From NCBI GenBank assembly GCA_963716985.1, contig OY970323.1, positions 768,001 through 832,000 of the forward strand: 64,000 nucleotides of DNA, in the 5' to 3' direction. Position 1 is the first letter of the stretch. Every line of letters starts with the position of its first letter. The notes beneath the pieces were generated by a model. It saw only the letters and a list, made by a program, of their open reading frames with translations, was not told the DNA's origin and did not search any database. Shown here one piece after another: positions 5,843 to 42,212 of this stretch. Position numbers and translations under genes: made by a program. This DNA comes from an uncultured bacterium. Lineage in GTDB: Bacteria > Chlamydiota > Chlamydiia > Chlamydiales > SM23-39.

Positions 5843-7378
5843 ATGCAACTGATCCTGGATGAATATTTTCAAAAAGCGCTCTCTTTTTTAGAACAATCGC
5901 AAGAGAGTCTTTTCTTGACGGGAAGGGCCGGGACCGGAAAGTCCACCCTTCTTTCCTATTTTATCGAGAAGACAAAAAAAAATATCGTGGTCCTGGCCCC
6001 GACGGGGGTCGCAGCTCTGAATGTAAAGGGAGAAACGATCCACTCCTTTTTTCATTTCAAGCCCGGGGTGACATCTGAAGATGCGAAAAGGGAGGCAAAA
6101 AAGATCAAAAAGGTAGGTTTTTATCGATCGATTGAGATCATCATCATTGATGAAATTTCGATGGTCAGGGCCGACCTTCTCGATTGCGCGGATATCTTTT
6201 TAAAGACCCTCTTTTCGAGCAAAAAACCCTTTGGAGGCATACGCATGGTCTTCATAGGCGATCTCTACCAGCTTCCTCCACCTGTTTCAAAGGAAGATCG
6301 TGAATATTTTGAGGAGTTTTATGAAACTCCCTATTTCTTTTCTGCCCAAGTGATGAAGGATCGCTCCTTTTGTCCGCATTTTATCGAGCTGGAAAAGATT
6401 TATCGACAGAGCGATGAGACCTTCATCTCCCTCCTCAACAGCATTCGTAAAAATTCTCTTTCCGAAGAAGAACTGACCCTTCTAAACAAGCGCTTTCTTC
6501 TGCCCGAAAAGGACGACGGGTGTCTCTATTTGACCACCACCAACGCACAGGCAACCAAAATCAACGAAGAAAAATTATGCGCTTTAAAGGGCAAGCTCTA
6601 TGAATATGTTGCAGATATAGAAGGGAATTTCGATGCAAAAGCATTGCCGACCGATTGCTCTCTTAAGCTAAAGGTGGGTGCGCAGGTGATCTTTTTGACC
6701 AATCAGAGCGAAGGTCTTTGGGTCAATGGAACCATTGGAAAAGTGATGGGCATCGACCAAGATCGGATTTTTGTCGAAACGGAAGGGGGGAAAGAGGTCC
6801 AAGTCAAACGATTCAACTGGACGCTTTACAAATATGAGTTTGATGCAAAATCAAAAAAGATGTTCCAGGAAGAGGCGGGATCTTTTCATCAATATCCCTT
6901 AAAACTTGCCTGGGCGCTGACCATTCACAAAGCGCAAGGAAAAAGCTTTGACAAGGTCATTCTGGATTTAGAGAGGGGCTCTTTTGCCCACGGCCAGACC
7001 TATGTCGCGCTCAGCCGCTGTCGAACGATGGAGGGGCTCTTTTTAAAAAAACCGCTGCAAAGGGGGCATATCCTTATGGATCTGCGAGTGGTGAAGTTTT
7101 TGACGCAGTATCAGTATGCACGTGCGGAAGAGATCTGCTCGACGGAGGAAAAAGTCGCTCTCATTCAACAAGCCATCCAAGAAAAAAAATTCCTTCAGAT
7201 GGTCTATTTGAAAAGCGACGATCAAAAATCCTTTCGAAAAATTCTTCCCCATTTTGTAGGCGATATGGAGTATCAAAACAAAAAATATCTAGGCATGGAA
7301 GCCTTTTGTTCCGAGCGAAATGAAAATCGCGTTTTTCGGATCGATCGCATTTTGGAATTAACTATTGCCGGAACTTAA
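5843..7378 (+). CDS. PIF1/RecD-like SF1B helicase with C-terminal WYL domain
   Basis: TGRAGTGKST, APTGVAA, DEISMVR, GDLYQLPP, LAWALTIHKAQGKSFD, YVALSR; C-terminal AFC..RNENRVFRIDRI is WYL-like. Confidence 0.9.
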   Translation: MQLILDEYFQKALSFLEQSQESLFLTGRAGTGKSTLLSYFIEKTKKNIVVLAPTGVAALNVKGETIHSFFHFKPGVTSEDAKREAKKIKKVGFYRSIEIIIIDEISMVRADLLDCADIFLKTLFSSKKPFGGIRMVFIGDLYQLPPPVSKEDREYFEEFYETPYFFSAQVMKDRSFCPHFIELEKIYRQSDETFISLLNSIRKNSLSEEELTLLNKRFLLPEKDDGCLYLTTTNAQATKINEEKLCALKGKLYEYVADIEGNFDAKALPTDCSLKLKVGAQVIFLTNQSEGLWVNGTIGKVMGIDQDRIFVETEGGKEVQVKRFNWTLYKYEFDAKSKKMFQEEAGSFHQYPLKLAWALTIHKAQGKSFDKVILDLERGSFAHGQTYVALSRCRTMEGLFLKKPLQRGHILMDLRVVKFLTQYQYARAEEICSTEEKVALIQQAIQEKKFLQMVYLKSDDQKSFRKILPHFVGDMEYQNKKYLGMEAFCSERNENRVFRIDRILELTIAGT

Positions 7379-31257: not shown

Positions 31258-32779
31258 CTCGACTTTGCAACTTTTAGCGGCTTAGTTCAGGCCGCCTGAA
31301 GCACTCGTCTTACTATATCATCCATCCAATCCACCATTTCTGGAGTAATATTTTCCACGGAAGGGGTGATTTTAGCCTTCCCGGAAATTAAATTATCCCT
31401 CCATATTACCATGCGCACGGCCCTCAACATATCGGAAAATGTGACGTGCTCTTTTTGGTGCCAAGCAGTTGCCTCTACCTTAAGCAAATTTACCTGTCCC
31501 AATCGATTTGCCATTAGGCATACGCAACTATATAACCCCATCAGTATGGGGGTCGATCGGGCTATCGCTCGATCCGACCATTGCCGCTGAGTCTCTACGC
31601 CAAGATGTTCACGTGTTTCTTCGAATGTGACCTCAAGTCCCCAGCGATCGATAAATAACTCTATCATACGTTCTGGCGTCATGCGTGGATCTGTGCTCAT
31701 AAGAGGTAGAGGGTCGAGTTTTCCTGTAGGATCTACCACCAAAACCCATCGGATGGGTATAGGAGTTGCTCCATCGGCTCCCCACATACATGTGTTAGAC
31801 AGCACGCGAGCTACCCGTTTCTCTCCGCCGTAACCGACTACTTCCATTTCTTTCCAGGGCAATCCCTTCAGAGATAGCATCTCTTTAAAATTTTTCAATT
31901 TGACGCCTTTCTGTGCAGTACGTCCCCTTTGGCCGGGACGCTTTTCGGCCGGGAAATCGAACAGGGCTGCATTCATTTTCAGTCGCGAAACAAGAGTCAC
32001 CCCAGAACAGATACAGTTCAGAGCCAACTGTCCCGCAGCATATCCTCCATCGCCAACAAGAATTAGTGATCGCGCCTTACCTACCCATCGACGCACCTGT
32101 AAGACCATCTGACTCGCCCATTTTAATGAGGTTTTGTGCCGACGTTTCTTCGCTTCATCACATTTTTTAGAAGGCTCCAGTGCACTCAAAAAAGGCAATG
32201 CAAGTGCTCTCGACATAAACGGCAATTTCACAGAGAGCGCCATAACCTGCCACTTCAAACCCATGGCTTTGACCACTCGAGACTGTGACGATCGAACCGC
32301 ATCTCGATAATAGCCCTTTGCTTTTATCTTCTTGCCACGCCTGCGCTCCAATGTCTCGTCAATGAGCAGAACCAAAGGATGCTGATCGGAGACAAAGATA
32401 AGCAACATAAAGAATAGGATTTTCGCTGCCTTGAGTGACGACCATTCCGCCCGGTTTAAAAGGTGATGGTACTTTGAAAAACCCGACTGATGCTCAAGAC
32501 CCATTGCGCGCAGAGCCGCACACACGGTTCTCTTGCCAGTGCATAAAAGCGTGCCAAGTAATAAGGTCAGGGCTTTTTTCCAAGAAGGATTTGAAAAAAG
32601 TACTGAAAAAGGGGTGAGTACTGCTAAAATGTTTGACGATAGAGAGTCCATGAGAGCCTGCCATTTTGTTTTACTGAACCAAATAGTATGCGCGAAGCGG
32701 CACTCTCTATCAACTTTTTATTTTACAGATTGAAGCAAATGACTTTGGGCTATCAGATCAAAAAATGTACAAAGTCGAG
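31258..32779 (-). mobile_element. IS701-like insertion sequence, 1522 bp
   Basis: Terminal inverted repeats CTCGACTTTG / CAAAGTCGAG flanking a DDE transposase; no target duplication visible. Confidence 0.85.
31287..32651 (-). CDS. DDE transposase (IS701-like)
   Basis: LIDETLERR, VGDGGYA, RWGLEVTFEETREHLG. Confidence 0.9.
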   Translation of the reverse strand: MDSLSSNILAVLTPFSVLFSNPSWKKALTLLLGTLLCTGKRTVCAALRAMGLEHQSGFSKYHHLLNRAEWSSLKAAKILFFMLLIFVSDQHPLVLLIDETLERRRGKKIKAKGYYRDAVRSSQSRVVKAMGLKWQVMALSVKLPFMSRALALPFLSALEPSKKCDEAKKRRHKTSLKWASQMVLQVRRWVGKARSLILVGDGGYAAGQLALNCICSGVTLVSRLKMNAALFDFPAEKRPGQRGRTAQKGVKLKNFKEMLSLKGLPWKEMEVVGYGGEKRVARVLSNTCMWGADGATPIPIRWVLVVDPTGKLDPLPLMSTDPRMTPERMIELFIDRWGLEVTFEETREHLGVETQRQWSDRAIARSTPILMGLYSCVCLMANRLGQVNLLKVEATAWHQKEHVTFSDMLRAVRMVIWRDNLISGKAKITPSVENITPEMVDWMDDIVRRVLQAA

Positions 32780-32786
32780 ATAGTTC

Positions 32787-33089
32787 ATGAGTATGCAAAA
32801 TGCGGCTCGCGTAGTCCTCATTCTTTTAACAATTTTAAGTGCAGGGCTTTTGTTATCAACCAGTGAGGAGGCGTGTTCTCAGATGAAGGGATTGAATCAA
32901 CTTCTAACATGTGAGCTCGAAAGGCTGCAAAACCAGTATGGCTTTCCGGGAGCAACAGTCGCATATGTGTTGCTCGACGGGACCGTGGGCGAGGTTGCAA
33001 GTGGATTTGCAGATATCGAAACTCAAGAACCTATGACCACCAAGTCTCGGATGCTGGCAGCCAGCATTGGAAAAACCTTCGTTGCTGCA
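32787..33089 (+). pseudogene. Serine hydrolase / beta-lactamase-like protein, 5' fragment
   Basis: Signal peptide, YGFPGATVA, SxxK motif ASIGKTFVAA, then the frame runs into antisense portal sequence. Confidence 0.8.
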
Positions 33090-34090
33090 TTGAGCCCCGC
33101 CGCACTTCGCCCGAAGAGCAAGGAGACAGGCACCCCAGACACTGCAGATAAAGCCAGCATGAAACGATCCAAAAGTTCAGGAATGCCGACGATGTTGGTT
33201 GAAGATTTCTCATATTTTTCTGCAGCATCTAAAATCATCGTATTGGTTGCACTTTTGGTCATATTGAGCAGGTCGAGCCGCTTCATCACCTGGTTGTCAG
33301 CGCATTGCGAAGCGATTAATTCAGCTAGGTTTGGAATCGACAGGGTATAATTGACAAAATCCTGCATAATGAGGCCTGCATTGGCAAAGGCGGTTGAGTA
33401 ATTCCTCAACTCATCATAAATCGATTGGATCAGTGGATCTCCCCATCCATTATTGAAATTTTGCTGCCGGGGAGGCAGGATCGACCAATCGATCCGCAGA
33501 ATGCGGGAATGGTGCACATAGAACAAAGCTCCTGTTCGTGTATCATTGACGGTATACACATTTGGAAAACCGTAATTGGGACTATTGAGATCCTTTTCAA
33601 AGGTGCCGTCCCTGCTAAACGATTGATATCGATCAAAAACATGGAGCCATTTCACATCGCGAATGTTTTTCTCATCGACCGGTTCTTCAAGGGGCAACCC
33701 ATCTGCAATCCCCATGACGCATAGAGCGCCTCCATACAAACGGGCCCATCTGAGGAGCGTGATTAAATTGAAATTGGCCTTAATGGTCTCCAGCGCGGCA
33801 TTAGTTTTTTGGTCCGAATCTCCCTCGATTTCCCATCCTTGCCGCACCATTTCGGCTGGGATGATGTCCATAATCCGTCGCGTCACTCCATCGGATCGAT
33901 AGAGCTGATCCAGTTCTGCCTGCTCGAATATCTTTTCCAAGCGGAACTGCGCATGCACATTTTTATCTCTGCCGCGCAACCCAAGTCCCGTGAGGACGTT
34001 GATCCAGCCATCCGACTTAACCGCACCATCGTGATGTGCGATTCGGCTTTGTTCTTCCGAAGATTTCTTTTTGAAATTGTAAGTACCCAT
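33086..34090 (-). pseudogene. Phage portal protein, DUF1073 family, C-terminally truncated
   Basis: DGWINVLTGLG, WARLYGGA, VHHSRIL, SGVPVSLLFGRSAAGLNA, then homology stops (ORF track 33023..34090). Confidence 0.8.
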
Positions 34091-34454: not shown

Positions 34455-36115
34455 CATCCCCATGCCGGAAGAATGCATTTTAGGGATTAAAAAAATCGCC
34501 TAAAAACAGATCCCCAAAATGGAAATCTCTTGTTTGGGGATGGATTTTATTGCCGCTTTCTGCTTATCATATAGGCATGATTAATCGGGTGTAAAAAATG
34601 ACAAATCCTCCATTCATTGGCCGTGAGCCAGAAATTGCTAGACTGAAGGGGCTCTTAAGTAAAAAAAGCGCAAGCCTCATTGTCGTTCGAGGACGACGAA
34701 GGATTGGCAAAAGCAGATTGCTTGCAGAGTTTGGGAAAGAAATGAAAAGCTTTTTCTTCTCAGGAATGCCTCCCATAAAAAAAACCAATGCTCGGCTGCA
34801 AAGAGAAGAATTTGCAGGTCAAATGGAAAGAATGGGGTTGCCTGGGGCTAAATCTGACGACTGGAGCAACCTTTTCTGGTCTTTATCAAAACATACTCAA
34901 AAGGGTCGTATCCTTGTCGTCTTTGATGAGATATCATGGATGGGGGGAAAGGATCCTGCATTTCTAGGAAAATTAAAAACTGCTTGGGATATGTATTTTA
35001 GCAAAAACCCCCACCTGATTATGGCTCTGTGCGGATCTATCTCTTCTTGGATTGAAGAAAATATCCTCAGCAGCACTGGATTTGTTGGAAGAGTCACTAT
35101 AGATCTTGTCTTAGAAGAGCTTCCCTTGAATGTTTGTAATGCTTTTTGGCGACCTAAAGAAAAACTCATTTCTGCTTATGAGAAATTTAAACTTTTGTCA
35201 ATCACTGGCGGAGTGCCACGCTATCTTGAAGAAATTAATCCTGAGTTGCCCGCAGAAAAAAATATTCAAAATCTTTGCTTTACTCGTGGAGGATTGCTCG
35301 TGCGAGAATTTGATGAGATTTTTTCTGACCTGTTTTCACGCCGTAGTACAAGTTATAAAGAAATAGTCACGTGTCTTGCAGAAGGACCTAGAGAGCTTTT
35401 GGAAATCTGTAAAGAACTTAAACAAACTCGTGGGGGACTGCGTAGTAAATATCTTGATGATTTGGTCAAAGCTGGATTTATTCAGAGAGATTTTTCTTGG
35501 CATCTACAGGATGAGAAGGAGACTAAAATAAGCCGCTTTCGCTTGAGTGATAATTATCTTCGGTTTTATTTGAAGTATATCTCTCGCAATCGTTCTAAAA
35601 TTCAAAAAGGAGATTTTACTCCCTCTGCATTGACAAATTTTCCTGGTTGGGAGGGCATCATGGGATTGCAGTTTGAAAATCTTGTCGTCCATAACCGAAA
35701 AACTGTTTTGAAGTTAATAGGAATATCTCCTGAAGAAGTAGTTATGGATGGTCCATTTTTTCAAAGGTCAACAAAAAAGCTTCCTGGATGTCAAATCGAC
35801 TATATGATTCAAACACGTTTTTCTACTTTATACATCTGCGAAATCAAATTTTCTAAGGATTCTATAGGAAAAAAAGTCATCGAAGAAATGAAAGAAAAAA
35901 TAAGTCGATTAAAATTACCTAAGCGCTTTTCTATTAGACCCATTCTTATCCATGTAAATGGAGTAGAGAGCGCTATGTTAGATGAAGGATATTTTGATAA
36001 GGTGATTGATTTCGGGCAGTTTTTAGAGTGAAATCCGCCTTATATTCTCATCCCGAAACGAGCAAAAGCTATTTGGGGGATTAAAAATTTAGCTCAAAAA
36101 TACATCCCCAGAATG
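34455..36115. repeat. Degenerate direct repeats of ATCCCC/GGGAT boxes flanking the ATPase gene
   Basis: 34478-34521 versus 36072-36115 match at 34 of 44 positions by manual alignment. Confidence 0.6.
34598..36031 (+). CDS. Archaeal-type AAA ATPase with wHTH and C-terminal PD-(D/E)XK-like domain
   Basis: FIGREPE, GRRRIGKS, VFDEISW, TGGVPRYL, QIDYMI...ICEIKF. Confidence 0.88.
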   Translation: MTNPPFIGREPEIARLKGLLSKKSASLIVVRGRRRIGKSRLLAEFGKEMKSFFFSGMPPIKKTNARLQREEFAGQMERMGLPGAKSDDWSNLFWSLSKHTQKGRILVVFDEISWMGGKDPAFLGKLKTAWDMYFSKNPHLIMALCGSISSWIEENILSSTGFVGRVTIDLVLEELPLNVCNAFWRPKEKLISAYEKFKLLSITGGVPRYLEEINPELPAEKNIQNLCFTRGGLLVREFDEIFSDLFSRRSTSYKEIVTCLAEGPRELLEICKELKQTRGGLRSKYLDDLVKAGFIQRDFSWHLQDEKETKISRFRLSDNYLRFYLKYISRNRSKIQKGDFTPSALTNFPGWEGIMGLQFENLVVHNRKTVLKLIGISPEEVVMDGPFFQRSTKKLPGCQIDYMIQTRFSTLYICEIKFSKDSIGKKVIEEMKEKISRLKLPKRFSIRPILIHVNGVESAMLDEGYFDKVIDFGQFLE

Positions 36116-36411
36116 ATATTTGTAGATTTACATATGTTTTTTATGACGAAAAAATATATCCGTAAATCGACTTTTTTCGATTTGGGGATGTCTTTTGTGC
36201 TCGAAAAATCCATCAGCAAACAGACATTTTGCTATTTGCGGATGGATTGCACCAATTTTTATAGACAAACTAGAGCGGAGCAGAAGCGAGAAAACAGCTT
36301 TCTGCCGCGCTTGATAACGAGATTTGTGTCTGTCGCGCGAAGTTGAGAAACATAAAACCCGCGCGATACGCTAGCCTAACAAAATAGGGAAACAGCTGCT
36401 TCCCAATTGAG

Positions 36412-37389
36412 CTACGAGATTAGATTGACCTTTTTGCTGGCATTCTCTGCGCGAGAGGATTTGTCATAAGCATGCACCATTTCAGAAGTAGAGTGACCGG
36501 TCACTCGCATGATGTCGCTGTCTTGGAATCCTTGTTGTTTCAGATAGGTGACAGCAGAAGCCCGAAGGACATGTGGGGAGATTTTGAAGGAGATACCGGC
36601 GGCTTTCCCTGCCTTCGCAAAGGTGATAGCCACTTGATTGATCATGACTGGTTTTCCGGATCTCGTCACGAATACGTGCCCCTGTCGCTCTCCAATGTAA
36701 GCTCTCAAAGCTTTCATAATGCTATCGGGGTAGGTGATAACGGTTTCCTTGTGGAGCTTCCTTGTTTTGGATTGCGTGAATGTAATCTCGCATTGCTCCC
36801 AGTCGATCTGGTGCGTTTGTAAGAAAAGAACCTCATTTACTCGCTTGCCGCCCTGCAGGATAATTTTGCCAATGAGACAATCTCTCAAGTTGATCTTTTC
36901 GAGCTCCTTGAAAAAGAGAAGCCATTGCGCTTGAGTCATGGCTTTGGTTTTGACTTTCTCATAGAGATTGAAAAACGTTTTTGTGCCTCCTTCTTTGCTA
37001 GGAATGGCTTTTCTGATCACTCCTTGAAGGCGTCTGCTGAGAAATCCTGTGAATGAAATATAGCAAGCAGCTCTGGCCTGTTTCGTGGTCTCTGCCCATT
37101 TTGAAAATAGCTTGATCTGATCGATGATTCCTTCGTGGTTGATCACGGCAAATGCTTGTAAATTGAGCAGGGGATTGAGCCATCCAAACTCGATCAGCTT
37201 TCTGATTCCGGATCGGTAGTTGATTTGCGTTTTTTGTCCAAGTGTAGAAAGCCAATGATCAATCGCTTGTTCGACGGAGGTCTCTGCCAGCTTTTCCCAA
37301 ATCAAGTTCGTTTTGGCGGAGGCAACCTGTTCGTACGTTTGTAAGCCATGAAGCATTGGCAACCCATGAACGGTAGGAACTAAACTCAT
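36412..37389 (-). CDS. Tyrosine recombinase, chlamydial plasmid integrase pGP8-like
   Basis: TKQARAACYISFTGFL, LQGGKRVNEV, QSKT, PHVLRASAVT, VTGH...YDK. Confidence 0.85.
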   Translation of the reverse strand: MSLVPTVHGLPMLHGLQTYEQVASAKTNLIWEKLAETSVEQAIDHWLSTLGQKTQINYRSGIRKLIEFGWLNPLLNLQAFAVINHEGIIDQIKLFSKWAETTKQARAACYISFTGFLSRRLQGVIRKAIPSKEGGTKTFFNLYEKVKTKAMTQAQWLLFFKELEKINLRDCLIGKIILQGGKRVNEVLFLQTHQIDWEQCEITFTQSKTRKLHKETVITYPDSIMKALRAYIGERQGHVFVTRSGKPVMINQVAITFAKAGKAAGISFKISPHVLRASAVTYLKQQGFQDSDIMRVTGHSTSEMVHAYDKSSRAENASKKVNLIS

Positions 37390-37489
37390 GTTTTTCGCTC
37401 CGGCCCAAAATAATGGGCTTTTTTAGTTTTTGGCATCTGCTGATCCGATTTTAGCGTTTGAGGGCTCGGGCCCTTCATACAGCCTTCGA

Positions 37490-37517
37490 ATTGTTTATAA
37501 CTCGATTTATAAACAAT
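37490..37517. other. dif/res-like tyrosine recombinase site (11-6-11)
   Basis: ATTGTTTATAA-CTCGAT-TTATAAACAAT, perfect arms, 100 bp upstream of the recombinase start. Confidence 0.7.
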
Positions 37518-37636
37518 AAAATGTAGCTCCAAATTTCTTTCCTGGCAACACGAAGTTTTGGCGATCTACCTTATTTAGCGGCAAGTCATCTTAGCTCCTT
37601 TCGTGTGAAAGGCAACATAATGCAACGTCAATAAGT

Positions 37637-37948
37637 ATGTGTGTTGACAATCCGGACCATAATCATTTATACGTTATATTGTCAAAGCAACAAAGAGGGA
37701 ATGTGAATAGGCAAGATCAAGCGGTAATGCAGCAAAGCGACCAAGAGATAAATGGACAAATTACCTCAAATCGAACCAAGAAAAAGATCAAAGCAACCAT
37801 TTATTTGACGGAAGATGCAGAACAAGCGTTTACCGAGCTTTATATTCATCGATTGCGCAAAGACAGAAAGATCGATCGTTCAATGATCGCCTGCGATGCG
37901 ATTCAGGCGCTCTTCGAAAAAGAATGTATGGGAGTAAAGCAGAACTAA
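37637..37948 (+). CDS. Small putative ribbon-helix-helix DNA-binding protein (plasmid partition/copy-control-like)
   Basis: KIKATIYLTE beta-strand followed by two helices (RSMIACDAIQAL); start uncertain. Confidence 0.55.
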   Translation: MCVDNPDHNHLYVILSKQQRGNVNRQDQAVMQQSDQEINGQITSNRTKKKIKATIYLTEDAEQAFTELYIHRLRKDRKIDRSMIACDAIQALFEKECMGVKQN

Positions 37949-38078: not shown

Positions 38079-38567
38079 ATGAAAAAAAGCCGTCTTTTTA
38101 AGATTAGAGTGGCCATTCCTACTGATGTTCCTGTAATTTTGCAGATGATAAAAGAACTAGCAGATTTTGAAAAAATTGAAGCGACGGTCACTGAAAAAAA
38201 TCTCCGTGAGGTTCTTTTTCATGATCCAAAAGGACCAGAAGCTTTGGTGGCTGAAGAAGATTCTGTTCCCATAGGATATCTCATTTTTTATCAAACTTTC
38301 TCCGGAAGTTTGGGGAAAAGAGGAATTTATATCGAAGATGTTTATATCAAAGAGCCTTACCGAAAAAAAGGTTATGGAACGCTTTTTTTTAAAGAAGTTG
38401 CACAAATAGCCAAAGCAAGAAAATGCGGAGGGTTTTTCTGGTCGGTGTTCAACTGGAATGAAAATGCCATTAGATTTTATCAAAAAATAGGCGGCATTCC
38501 TATGAACGATCAGACCGTTTATCGCCTAACGGAGAAAGCTTTGGATATTTTTCTTGAGAAAAAATGA
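38079..38567 (+). CDS. GNAT acetyltransferase (diamine acetyltransferase-like)
   Basis: IKELADFEK, IYIEDVYI...YRKKGYG, WNENAIRFY. Confidence 0.9.
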   Translation: MKKSRLFKIRVAIPTDVPVILQMIKELADFEKIEATVTEKNLREVLFHDPKGPEALVAEEDSVPIGYLIFYQTFSGSLGKRGIYIEDVYIKEPYRKKGYGTLFFKEVAQIAKARKCGGFFWSVFNWNENAIRFYQKIGGIPMNDQTVYRLTEKALDIFLEKK

Positions 38568-38644: not shown

Positions 38645-39994
38645 TTAAAATGTCGTTAAAGCCGATAGATCGTAAGCGGCATTCGTGAGCATCAAAAACG
38701 CTCCGCTGAAAGCATCCACGATATCGTCGTGGCTGCCTTCGGGGAAATTTTCCAGCTCCCTTAAGAAATCGTCATTCCAAGGAGCCTGAAGGATTTTAAT
38801 ATTGCCAGCTTCTGCTTGGGAAGAAACAGGGAGCGCTCGGGTCACTTTATCTTGGGTCGCTTTGACGGTTTTCACATTGTAGCCTTGGAGCATTCGGAGC
38901 AGATAATCGGCTTCACTGACTCCTGCCTGGCCTGGATCTTGTTCAATGCCGATTCTGACGGCGATTCCATCTTGGCTCGCTGTATTTTTGATCGCTGTTT
39001 GTACGCCAAGAGGGCTTTGTTGAATTCGCACCATGTCAGTGACATACAAGATGTTATTTCTGTCTTTTTCGAGTCGAAGCCCAACGGTATAATCCGGATC
39101 ATTGTTCTCGATTTTTTTGGTGGCCGCACGGTCCCAATAACGGACTGCTTTTGTCCCGCTCTTGGGAATGGCTTTGACGATCTCGAAAAAGCATCGTTGA
39201 AAAAACATGCCGGCCGTAGGACGTACATTCCAGTTGCCCATCAGCAACTGTTCTCTTTCAAAACGGGGAAGGGCTTTCAAATTGGCGAGATAGCCAGGGT
39301 CTTTTTCCAGGAGGATTTTATTATCATGTACCGTAGACGCGACGAAGGAGACACTTTTGGGAAGACATGTCGGATTTTTTTCTATGAGCTCTTCACGGCT
39401 CGATGCCCAGATTGTTTCGTCGTTTTGGATGATGAACCAACGTATTTTACCGCTTCTGGAATGAATGGGATACCCCGATTGGTCATCGATCCACCAAGAG
39501 ATGAATTGCCTGACCCAGGATTCTGAATCAGGATTTGTCGTCGCTCGAATGTAGGGCTTCACTCCACAAGTTGATCGGTTTCTCGACAGCATATAAACGA
39601 ATTGCGACCAAGAAAAATGACTCAGCTCATCAAATCCAATAAAAGAGATTTGGGCGCCTTGCCAATCGAATCGCGTTTTATCATGTTCGAGATGGGCAAA
39701 TTTGACTTTTCCTTTACCCCGGAAATCCCATTCGAGCGTTGATTCTTTGGGGATGCCGTTGGCGTGAGGAAAGATTTCGCAGCTTGTGTCCCATAGTCCG
39801 CCCGGATTGCGCACCTGGGTACTATTTCGTCGAAAAATGACGGCGAAAAATCCGGTGACATTTCGATGGCGTAAACATTCCAAGAGGAGCGCATATGTTT
39901 TACCGCCTCCCGCAGCTCCTCCATAAATCACGATATCAGCAGGGGAGTCTAAAAACTGGTGCTGAGGTCCTTGTTGTGGCATGATTTTAGACAT
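38645..39994 (-). CDS. terL: Phage terminase large subunit
   Basis: YGGAAGGGKT, GFDELSHF, ATTNP, RYWDRAAT, DYTVG, HDDIVDA. Confidence 0.92.
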   Translation of the reverse strand: MSKIMPQQGPQHQFLDSPADIVIYGGAAGGGKTYALLLECLRHRNVTGFFAVIFRRNSTQVRNPGGLWDTSCEIFPHANGIPKESTLEWDFRGKGKVKFAHLEHDKTRFDWQGAQISFIGFDELSHFSWSQFVYMLSRNRSTCGVKPYIRATTNPDSESWVRQFISWWIDDQSGYPIHSRSGKIRWFIIQNDETIWASSREELIEKNPTCLPKSVSFVASTVHDNKILLEKDPGYLANLKALPRFEREQLLMGNWNVRPTAGMFFQRCFFEIVKAIPKSGTKAVRYWDRAATKKIENNDPDYTVGLRLEKDRNNILYVTDMVRIQQSPLGVQTAIKNTASQDGIAVRIGIEQDPGQAGVSEADYLLRMLQGYNVKTVKATQDKVTRALPVSSQAEAGNIKILQAPWNDDFLRELENFPEGSHDDIVDAFSGAFLMLTNAAYDLSALTTF

Positions 39995-40475
39995 TTGGAT
40001 CGTCCGTTTTTGCTTCTATGCAATCGCCTCTTCCATTATCGGGAATATAAATCTGCACAGGATCTTCTCCTTTGACGATCGTTTCCGTAACAATGGTTTC
40101 TCTTTGGCCGAGCCATATCTTTCCAAGCCAGATTGCCATCGTTGCACTTCGTTCGGCTTGTTGAAATTGATACCTTCGGAGGGAGAGTTTATGAAGCCCA
40201 TTGCACCTTTTTCTTAACTCCGCAAAACCCATACCAAAAGCCTCCCTCAACCTTCGATCCAAAGTGTCTACACTGATTCGAAAAGCGCCTGCGATTTCTT
40301 CGGCTGTTGCTTGCAATTCGGTCCAATAGAGCACTTGATCGAGATTGATTTCTTTTTCTGGAATTGTCCCTTTCCATTCAGAAGGAGGGGCTTTAGGATC
40401 TGCGGGAGGCTTAACTGTCTTTTTCGGCCGGCCATTCGGTCTTCCCGTTGGTTTTCTAGGCATAGACTTCACCAT
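39987..40475 (-). CDS. Putative terminase small subunit
   Basis: GRP N-terminus, HTH (AEEIAGAFRISVDTLDRR), MAIWLGKIWLGQ; overlaps the terL start. Confidence 0.75.
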   Translation of the reverse strand: MVKSMPRKPTGRPNGRPKKTVKPPADPKAPPSEWKGTIPEKEINLDQVLYWTELQATAEEIAGAFRISVDTLDRRLREAFGMGFAELRKRCNGLHKLSLRRYQFQQAERSATMAIWLGKIWLGQRETIVTETIVKGEDPVQIYIPDNGRGDCIEAKTDDPNV

Positions 40476-41745
40476 TCCGCTTGATTTCGCAAACCTCGTT
40501 TCTTTGCATCTTGAATTTTCTGTAGCGGGTGACGATCACATCACAATATCTTGGATCCAATTCGCATCCAAAACAACGGCGCCCGAGCTGCTCCGCCGCG
40601 ATCAGCGTGCTGCCAGAGCCCAGAAAGAAGTCAAAAACAAGATCGTCCCTTTTCGAGCTGTTATTGATCAGATAGCCAATCAAAGGGATCGGTTTCATGG
40701 TTGGATGCTCGGCATTTCTCTGGGGGCGATCAAATTTCAAAAGAGTCGTCTGTTTGCGATTGCTATACCAACGGTGTTTCTCCCCCTCTTTCCACCCATA
40801 AAGCACGGGGTCATGATCCGTATATTCCTTCCCTCCAAACAGAATCGGCTCATGCTGCCATTGATAGTCTTGCCTTCCGAGAACAAACGAGTTCTTGAGC
40901 CAGATCAAGCATTGCGTCATCTTCAAATTCGCTTCCCGGAAAAACCGTCGGAATCGTTCTCCTTCCGAGTCTGCGTGAAAGACATAAATTCCAGCGCCCT
41001 CCTTCATAAAGATGTAAGCATTCGTGTAGAAATCCCTTAAAAGCGATTCAAATTCCTCATGAGAAAGATCATCGTTTTTGATGGTGAGTGCATCCCTTGT
41101 TTTTCCCTTGTAAGCCACATTATAGGGAGGATCGGTAATGACAAGATCGATCAGATGGGATTTCAGCACTTTTTCTATATCTCCGTGAAGGGTCGCAGAT
41201 CCGCAAATAAGTCGATGCCGGCCGAGTTCATAAATGTCGCCCGGCTTCGTCTTGGGTTCCTCTGGCAGCTCTTCTTCGTAGCCATCGTCTACAGCTTCGA
41301 TTTTTTCAGGATCCTTGAATTGCAACTCATCTTCTGTAAATCCCCAATTGAATAGATCAGTGACTTCCCATTCATTGGCCAGCCGTTCCCAATCCCACTC
41401 GCCTGAGTTTTTGTTGCTGCGAATGAGATATTCTTCCGCCTCCTTTTCGGTTAGCTGGCGATTGGGTGTCCTCACCTCGATTTCTTCATTGCCACGACCC
41501 AATGCCTTCATTGCTCGCACCCGCATATGACCTGCCAAAATAGTGTTATCCGAATTGATGACAATGGTCTCAACGTAGTTAAAGCTTCGAATCGATTGCT
41601 TGAGCTTTTCCATTTGCTCTGCTGTGATTTTTCGCGGATTTTTCTGATGTTCTTTTAAGTCATTGACTTTTCTAAGTTTGGTGTGCCAAATCAGGTCGCT
41701 CCCTTGTTTTGAGGAGCCTTTGTGATTGGTTGTTTTATTGGTCAT
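40456..41745 (-). CDS. ParB-N-terminal phage DNA methyltransferase (N6/N4)
   Basis: NPRKI...ILAGHMR, TDPPYNV, HPTMKP, DFFLGSGSTL. Confidence 0.92.
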   Translation of the reverse strand: MTNKTTNHKGSSKQGSDLIWHTKLRKVNDLKEHQKNPRKITAEQMEKLKQSIRSFNYVETIVINSDNTILAGHMRVRAMKALGRGNEEIEVRTPNRQLTEKEAEEYLIRSNKNSGEWDWERLANEWEVTDLFNWGFTEDELQFKDPEKIEAVDDGYEEELPEEPKTKPGDIYELGRHRLICGSATLHGDIEKVLKSHLIDLVITDPPYNVAYKGKTRDALTIKNDDLSHEEFESLLRDFYTNAYIFMKEGAGIYVFHADSEGERFRRFFREANLKMTQCLIWLKNSFVLGRQDYQWQHEPILFGGKEYTDHDPVLYGWKEGEKHRWYSNRKQTTLLKFDRPQRNAEHPTMKPIPLIGYLINNSSKRDDLVFDFFLGSGSTLIAAEQLGRRCFGCELDPRYCDVIVTRYRKFKMQRNEVCEIKRNGEVYA

Positions 41746-41870
41746 TCAATTTCTCTTTTTTGAAGTTTTTCAGTCGAAATTTTCCTTGCAATAGCAAGGA
41801 TCGCTTTCAAATCAAAAAGGGGTGATTGAGAAACTGGGTAAGTGGGTAGAAGCCTGCCGGCTTAGGAAAG

Positions 41871-42212
41871 TCACGCTTTAGTGACGATTTCGATCGTAAT
41901 GGGATAAAGTTCTTCGACCATTTTTCTTTTCGTCTGGCTTAGGGCAGTATCTTTGCCTTTCGTGTCGACGAAGCTAATATCTCCATTCGAATAAAACACC
42001 TGAAAATCACAGACATAACGGGTCCTGCCGGGCAGATCGAAAGGGATCTGTCGCAAGAAAAACAACACCTGTCCATTATTTTGTAATAGGCGCAGCCTGT
42101 CGTAATATCTGGCCTCGAGTTTGGAGGGGAATTTTTTCCCGTCGCGTTCGCAGCGAACCGCGCCAAATTTATGTTTTGACCTGGGCCGCTGTTTGAAAAT
42201 CTGGAATGCCAT
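41871..42212 (-). CDS. DUF1064-family phage PD-(D/E)XK nuclease-like protein
   Basis: KFGA...DGKKFPSKLEARYY, YVCDF, VDTKG. Confidence 0.8.
   Translation of the reverse strand: MAFQIFKQRPRSKHKFGAVRCERDGKKFPSKLEARYYDRLRLLQNNGQVLFFLRQIPFDLPGRTRYVCDFQVFYSNGDISFVDTKGKDTALSQTKRKMVEELYPITIEIVTKA

Follow-up and report, generated by a model that had tools for sequence, protein, structure and literature searches.

A predicted core recombination site next to a Pgp8-type plasmid recombinase in a chlamydial phage-plasmid remnant

Annotations have for many years presented the chlamydial plasmid proteins Pgp7 and Pgp8 (CDS1/CDS2) as multimer resolvases of XerC/D type, to our knowledge without a known substrate. 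The family itself is well described (PMC7846284, PMC7259575, PMC7143637, PMC11577247, PMC5871946), and one of these papers gives resolution of plasmid multimers as its presumed role (PMC11577247). Searches of open-access full texts returned no description of a Pgp7/Pgp8 target; subscription papers, older papers and supplements might mention the dyad. Here, we ask what is the role of a palindrome lying upstream of a recombinase gene of this family in an uncultured chlamydial bacterium. The DNA analysed (64 kb in full, called the window below) covers 768–832 kb of a single 2.07-Mb contig.

The initial annotation had described the palindrome as a perfect 11-6-11 inverted repeat, and this description holds: the repeat occupies positions 37490–37517 and ends 100 bp ahead of the recombinase ATG (37389). 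The region is organized as follows.

36387..36404, minus strand: terminator-like hairpin after the recombinase, from sequence
36412..37389, minus strand: Pgp8-type tyrosine recombinase, 325 aa, with R183-K208-H273-R276-H299-Y308 intact
37386..37478, minus strand: 30-codon ORF between site and recombinase, read from sequence; its stop overlaps the recombinase start
37490..37517, no strand: predicted core recombination site with two perfectly symmetric 11-bp arms and an asymmetric 6-bp spacer
37520..37548, minus strand: sigma-70-like promoter, a consensus match only; its -10 box stops 2 bp short of the site

The transcription start predicted from the promoter, which is conserved in the close clade as a consensus match, falls within the first arm. 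The short ORF is about 60 codons long in several relatives. Downstream of the recombinase, at 36097–36196, there is a long imperfect inverted repeat, where contigs of other samples match.

Perfect 11-6-11 repeats of arbitrary sequence are fairly common (21 in the source genome), and 37490–37517 is the only repeat of the genome that combines the Xer-type inner motif with symmetry at 10 or more of 11 positions. The site has no other match with 3 or fewer mismatches in the 64-kb window (0 in 100 shuffles). A search for second copies, proposed in the initial annotation, returned none in the 2.07-Mb genome, the next best arm match with a 6-bp spacer having 5 mismatches. Another perfect 11-6-11 inverted repeat is present in the source genome in seven copies, including those at 503188, 517972, 660610 and 854097, and is probably part of a mobile element.

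We next characterized the enzyme. The window recombinase scores 82.8 bits against PF00589 (Pfam), above the cut-off, as expected of a tyrosine recombinase, and is 78.5% identical to the integrase of the Criblamydia plasmid, 56% to that of Waddlia pWc and 47–49% to Chlamydia pGP8. Identity to pGP7 is lower (39–43%). The protein resembles the chlamydial plasmid integrases over its full length and groups with them in a quick, midpoint-rooted tree, which makes it a member of the Pgp7/Pgp8 family; it lies outside the Pgp7 clade and keeps the catalytic Arg and His, which assigns it by sequence to the Pgp8 rather than the Pgp7 branch. It does not reach the cut-offs of the XerC and XerD models (45 and 37 bits against 335 and 330), nor those of XerA (78 against 220) and XerS (29.5 against 267). 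The predicted structure (pLDDT 85.5) consists of a core-binding and a catalytic domain; an arm-binding domain was looked for in this model and none was found. In structure comparison the model matches the folds of XerA, lambda integrase core, XerH and Cre, with XerA being the best match in both sequence and fold. Catalytic residues are invariant across environmental and pGP8 rows of the alignment, except for one H>Q change and truncated rows. The Pgp7 active site is degenerate, the first Arg being replaced by Lys and the second His by Leu or Phe, each in 17 of 19 rows, so that Chlamydia pgp7 genes (e.g. L006 6421–7338) lack both residues in most species. This loss calls into question the stated redundancy of Pgp7 with Pgp8. 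The source genome also contains a small fragment of a second Pgp8-type gene (1,836,171–1,836,320; matching the Criblamydia C-terminus at 86%) and, at 878–970 kb, a cluster of six more tyrosine recombinases of 362–390 aa beside a GC-skew plateau.

Since the geometry and inner bases of the palindrome are those of Xer sites and the host encodes both XerC and XerD, the site could be a target of host XerCD, either the chromosomal dif, as the initial annotation had warned, or a plasmid site resembling cer/pdif. The palindrome and the chromosomal dif are distinct. A dif of canonical chlamydial form (PMC3025954) is located at 1,204,727–1,204,754, close to the peak of the cumulative GC skew (1,213,632) and some 400 kb away from the window site, and its XerC arm is identical to that of Chlamydia chromosomes. 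The window arm matches the host dif arms at only 6 (XerC) and 5 (XerD) of 11 positions, and the site lies 63% along the replichore, so neither its position nor its XerD-arm match is that of a chromosomal XerCD/dif system. Host XerD (1,098 kb), which passes the cut-off, and XerC (348 kb), which narrowly misses it, are both encoded away from the site. Finally, the host dif pattern is kept in all five other recombinase-carrying genomes tested, whereas the arms of the palindrome vary with the Pgp8 clade. We therefore regard a host XerCD target as highly improbable. A local GC-skew turn in the window was considered as a sign of the terminus and dismissed, the genome peak being at 1.21 Mb. Replacement of dif by a chromosomal copy was likewise considered and rejected: a Pgp8-type copy is near dif in only one of five chromosomes (G214), and canonical dif is intact in all five. 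In that genome, the copy and its site (G214:C2 1,607 kb, L055) are about 23 kb from dif.

The genes surrounding the recombinase point to the origin of the locus.

33023–34090, minus strand: shortened portal gene, on the far side of the recombinase
34598–36031, plus strand: AAA-ATPase cargo, with the portal gene on the far side of the recombinase
37637..37948, plus strand: divergent small ORF, ribbon-helix-helix-like (a lead only; no Pfam hit)
38079..38567, plus strand: GNAT acetyltransferase at a variable cargo position, where relatives have toxin-antitoxin genes
38645..42212, minus strand: terminase large subunit, small-terminase-like ORF, DNA methylase and DUF1064, syntenic with the Criblamydia phage-plasmid

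Synteny with the Criblamydia phage-plasmid, established by tblastx with score filters, covers 33.1–42.2 kb of the window. The phage-plasmid remnant looks truncated: its portal gene encodes 355 aa, compared to 485 in L012, and is near a DDE transposase gene (31287–32651). With phage-plasmid genes on both sides, the site sits intact inside the integrated remnant, away from its edge, and, as the chromosome offers it no partner, it is probably a passenger of this remnant (33.0–42.2 kb). The 89.5-kb Criblamydia plasmid has one such site with these arms, and sites are also found on Waddlia and Chlamydia plasmids; none was seen in the 12 kb scanned of the Simkania plasmid. A single site per replicon beside the gene of its enzyme, on plasmids, is the arrangement of replicon-encoded multimer resolution. 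A palindrome adjoining an integrase-family gene of a phage-plasmid, with copies in chromosomes, might instead be a phage attP through which the element integrates. This would be expected to leave a split attL/attR pair, which was sought in 5 genomes and found in none; in 4 of the 5 every recombinase copy comes with one exact site, and here the site is single and uninterrupted. The structure model, having no arm-binding domain, also departs from what is predicted for a lambda-type integrase with attP. The attP explanation thus appears as remote as the XerCD one.

If the palindrome is the target of the adjacent enzyme, it should accompany homologues of this enzyme elsewhere. Among 401 genomes of a phylum sample, 63 matched at E≤1e-40, and genomes, plasmids, MAGs and viral contigs together gave 109 near-full matches, or 96 distinct rows, 94 of which had at least 300 bp upstream and were scanned for symmetry over 400 bp. 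Using a motif-free criterion (9/11 symmetric positions, 5 inner pairs, spacer of 6), we recovered the similar sites beside homologues that the initial annotation had anticipated: they are present in 38 of 60 environmental rows (shuffles: mean 2.55, maximum 5) and upstream of 16 of 17 Chlamydia pgp8 genes (shuffles 0.55). Seven of 17 pgp7 rows also passed, all due to an origin repeat without fixed spacer. A downstream control gave 11 of 58 environmental rows, mostly terminator-like, and changing the spacer to 5 or 7 left 1/60 and 6/60. When the inner motif was required, the counts were 49/60 for environmental rows, 17/17 for Chlamydia pgp8 and 1/19 for pgp7; the loci are related by descent and the counts are therefore not independent. 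The 11 environmental misses comprise two loci where inserted cargo puts the site 2.6 kb upstream, five broken genes, one contig ending 3.4 kb upstream (L030, with no site as far as the contig end) and three intact genes, L037, L041 (Simkania plasmid) and L060, with no site in ~8 kb upstream. The cargo of about 2.6 kb separates site and recombinase in L014 and L029/L089; in L014 it is made of four ORFs resembling toxin-antitoxin and kinase genes. In L010 and L012, apparent second sites 3 kb upstream are inside methylase coding sequence and were discarded as chance matches. In the reverse test, which started from the bare DNA pattern, 31 of the 78 matches in metagenomes were accompanied by a pGP8-like gene, and in each of these the site is upstream of the gene's start; the other 47 had no pGP8-like gene on the available contig DNA, some of these contigs being short and many matches A/T-rich. 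Judging from these sequences, the site is an attribute of the Pgp8 branch and not of Pgp7.

The anatomy of the site was analysed on 48 distinct sequences, which were partly chosen for symmetry and are mutually related; one site wrapping a record end and one origin palindrome were left out. In this set 91% of arm positions pair (31–45% in slid controls), 9 of 11 pairs have two-sided changes, and 11 distinct symmetric arm types can be told apart. The symmetry covers positions 4–14 from the centre, drops to background from position 15 and is below column expectation within the spacer. None of the 34 distinct spacers is palindromic; taken alone, this asymmetry is borderline (P = 0.055). Four reverse-complement pairs were found among the 34 spacers, with about 0.14 expected by a uniform estimate; in these pairs only the spacer is inverted, and its flanks have stayed as they were. 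Arms of 11 bp around a short spacer, tied to a single recombinase gene, are characteristic of XerA/XerS/XerH-type systems. The compensatory changes in the arms are also compatible with base pairing in a hairpin formed by the recombinase mRNA at its 5′ end, or in a DNA cruciform, and indeed the strand folds (z about -3 to -4) and the site is at the predicted transcript start. Yet the asymmetric arm positions (G-T 12, A-C 8, other 38) have no wobble preference, the loop is 6 long throughout and closed by invariant A-T pairs, and transcription would begin within the left arm. Altogether, an RNA hairpin or cruciform seems very unlikely.

A site used for recombination may leave traces in the form of mosaic flanks. 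In 29 close relatives, distances in the 60-bp block left of the site correlate with those of gene blocks at only ~0–0.2, compared to 0.5–0.9 among gene blocks and 0.2–0.7 among left blocks; blocks farther left (-120, -180) correlate with the gene at 0.2–0.45, more than the nearest one. Sharp pairwise steps over 36 loci fall within 70 bp of the site centre in 18 of 27 cases. Two mosaics are particularly clear. L022 is L009-like on the left and L138-like on the right at every informative position (~80 on either side), changing over between -14 and +31, and L168 switches from L148 (left) to the type of this window (right) between -20 and +26; all partners in both mosaics have the same spacer. A triplet scan at strict settings gave two breakpoints, both spanning the spacer (probably one event), with 3 of 7 at intermediate and 3 of 15 at looser settings; at the loosest, 15 of 51 breakpoints overlap the 28-bp site out of ~1,550 bp scanned, by eye count. 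Results of these scans are not independent, and the alignments are anchored on the site. Moreover, the site is inside the longest identical run for two of three parent pairs (43/238 and 43/99 bp in runs of at least 20), and a shared run of 43 bp means that homologous crossover or assembly chimeras could mimic the breakpoints. The four-gamete test was saturated at 0.58–0.72 and set aside, and low-depth contigs of the sequencing runs contained no joint at the site, which argues in neither direction.

Published data on Chlamydia plasmids offer a second view of exchange at the site. A plasmid swap of C. trachomatis with C. muridarum was mapped to a 27-bp identical run (Wang 2014, PMC4314687), with no mention of palindromes or site-specific recombination. 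In our own alignment a 27-bp run is located at L185 5363–5389, on the predicted Chlamydia site, and a 26-bp run at 6448–6473; they are 1,058 bp apart and are two of 16 identical runs of at least 26 bp. By its length, position and the 1,058-bp distance, the published 27-bp run is the site predicted here. The swapped region was favoured by selection, and the clones may be siblings. The 26-bp run (L185 6448–6473 and equivalents) coincides with another dif-like element, its spacer being 6 bp, at the pgp7 stop, present in 16 of 17 Chlamydia plasmids, which overlaps an antisense promoter and the pgp7 stop and has its spacer flipped in the trachomatis group. We treat this element as a second site as a lead only. 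In G140 (L073), an element of the same type forms a perfect 11-6-11 and is located upstream of another recombinase. The small plasmids of G140 and G156 (L073 and L074) carry a distant recombinase (~30% identity) between pgp7 and the helicase gene; it is in tandem orientation, whereas Chlamydia pgp8 is inverted. Two further candidates were set aside: an A/T-rich inverted repeat before the Chlamydia iterons, tried as a Pgp7 site, has a variable spacer length, and the 44-bp duplication of nvCT, tried as a recombination scar, copies the promoter and only the outer left arm and is uninformative.

Both breakpoints of the published CDS2 swap fall on the Pgp8 site and the pgp7-stop element. A bolder scheme can be drawn from this, in which Chlamydia pgp8 would be a cassette between two Xer-type cores, the CDS2 swap a site-specific double crossover, Pgp7 a dead-paralogue regulator, and the family a collection of at least 11 enzyme/28-bp site pairs with different specificities; we consider this scheme conceivable and, as a whole, rather doubtful.

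The same plasmids also bear on a reading of the palindrome as an operator. The start of C. trachomatis pgp8 is mapped at -58, according to the transcript data quoted from PMC2817459, and by coordinates this is the third base of the left arm, provided that the annotated start codon is the same. The palindrome may thus be an autoregulatory operator only, where the recombinase or another dimer represses the promoter, the crossover site being elsewhere or lost. Along with the overlap with both the mapped start and the one predicted here, the in-place flips that produced four reverse-complement pairs among the 34 spacers fit an operator. So do the genetics: PMC4314687 (citing Gong 2013) and PMC6180227 (on sRNA-2) report that Pgp8 protein is unnecessary for C. 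trachomatis plasmid replication or otherwise not required; C. psittaci with pgp8 deleted is reported to have been passaged stably, its authors allowing for effects on copy number and on stability (PMC13711795); and Pgp8 is reported as a negative transcription regulator in PMC13711795 and PMC4314687. An operator alone, however, does not call for an 11-6-11 Xer geometry that stays constant and keeps its inner bases, for invariant catalytic residues or for breakpoints on the site between same-spacer partners, and a homologue of the divergent ribbon-helix-helix-like ORF is found at just 22 of 66 site-bearing loci. A purely regulatory role is, in our view, improbable, though the least so of the single alternatives to recombination.

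We conclude that the palindrome is quite probably the cognate core of a single, catalytically intact Pgp8-type recombinase, serving multimer resolution and probably autorepression. According to the standard tyrosine-recombinase model, described in a section of PMC5357621 with a homotetramer on two sites, one Pgp8 subunit would bind each arm, and two sites would synapse as a homotetramer with strand exchange across the 6-bp spacer. The asymmetric spacer would set the direction and confine recombination to sites with the same spacer, a rule that would also let related plasmids exchange flanks. In this way multimers of the source (phage-)plasmid would be resolved at the site by the adjacent recombinase; given one site per replicon, we infer dimer resolution as the product. 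Bound over the start site, the recombinase would likely repress its own promoter. Both the symmetric arms and the degeneracy of the Pgp7 active site favour Pgp8 acting alone over an XerC/XerD-like Pgp7/Pgp8 pair. As to the initial annotation, its cognate-site reading is supported at the sequence level by similar sites beside homologues and by the window site not being dif, while the role suggested here is nearer to plasmid resolution than to the chromosomal XerS/XerH systems to which it had been compared.

The genetics of Pgp7/Pgp8 are in conflict, with an essential locus and a dispensable protein. A target overlapping the pgp8 start offers a cis-acting reading of the importance of this region. 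With a defined 28-bp target, whose position is kept all the way from phage-plasmids of environmental origin to the plasmid of C. trachomatis, function becomes directly testable; the prediction is that Pgp8 acts alone and that Pgp7 provides no catalytic back-up. The family may also yield compact recombinases with varied short targets.

Among known systems, the window protein belongs with the Pgp7/Pgp8 integrases of chlamydial plasmids. Replicon-encoded tyrosine recombinases that act in multimer resolution at a symmetric site upstream are represented by Cre/loxP of phage-plasmid P1, ResD/rfsF of F and TnpI/IRS of Tn4430. The window recombinase has a weak fold match to Cre, but is only ~12% identical to it, and its site is 11-6-11 with dif-like inner bases, in contrast to the 13-8-13 geometry of loxP. 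Archaeal XerA/dif is similar in having a single recombinase and an 11-6-11 site, gene and site sometimes forming one module (as outlined in PMC5357621); XerA, however, is chromosomal and acts at the terminus, whereas the window protein is plasmid-derived and encoded far from it. XerS/difSL and XerH/difH also rely on one enzyme, with xerS directly beside its own site (same source, in its account of these systems), but their sites are imperfect and chromosomal, and the centre of difSL is 11 bp. The palindrome is a real, conserved element and most likely represents single-enzyme plasmid resolution in a new form.
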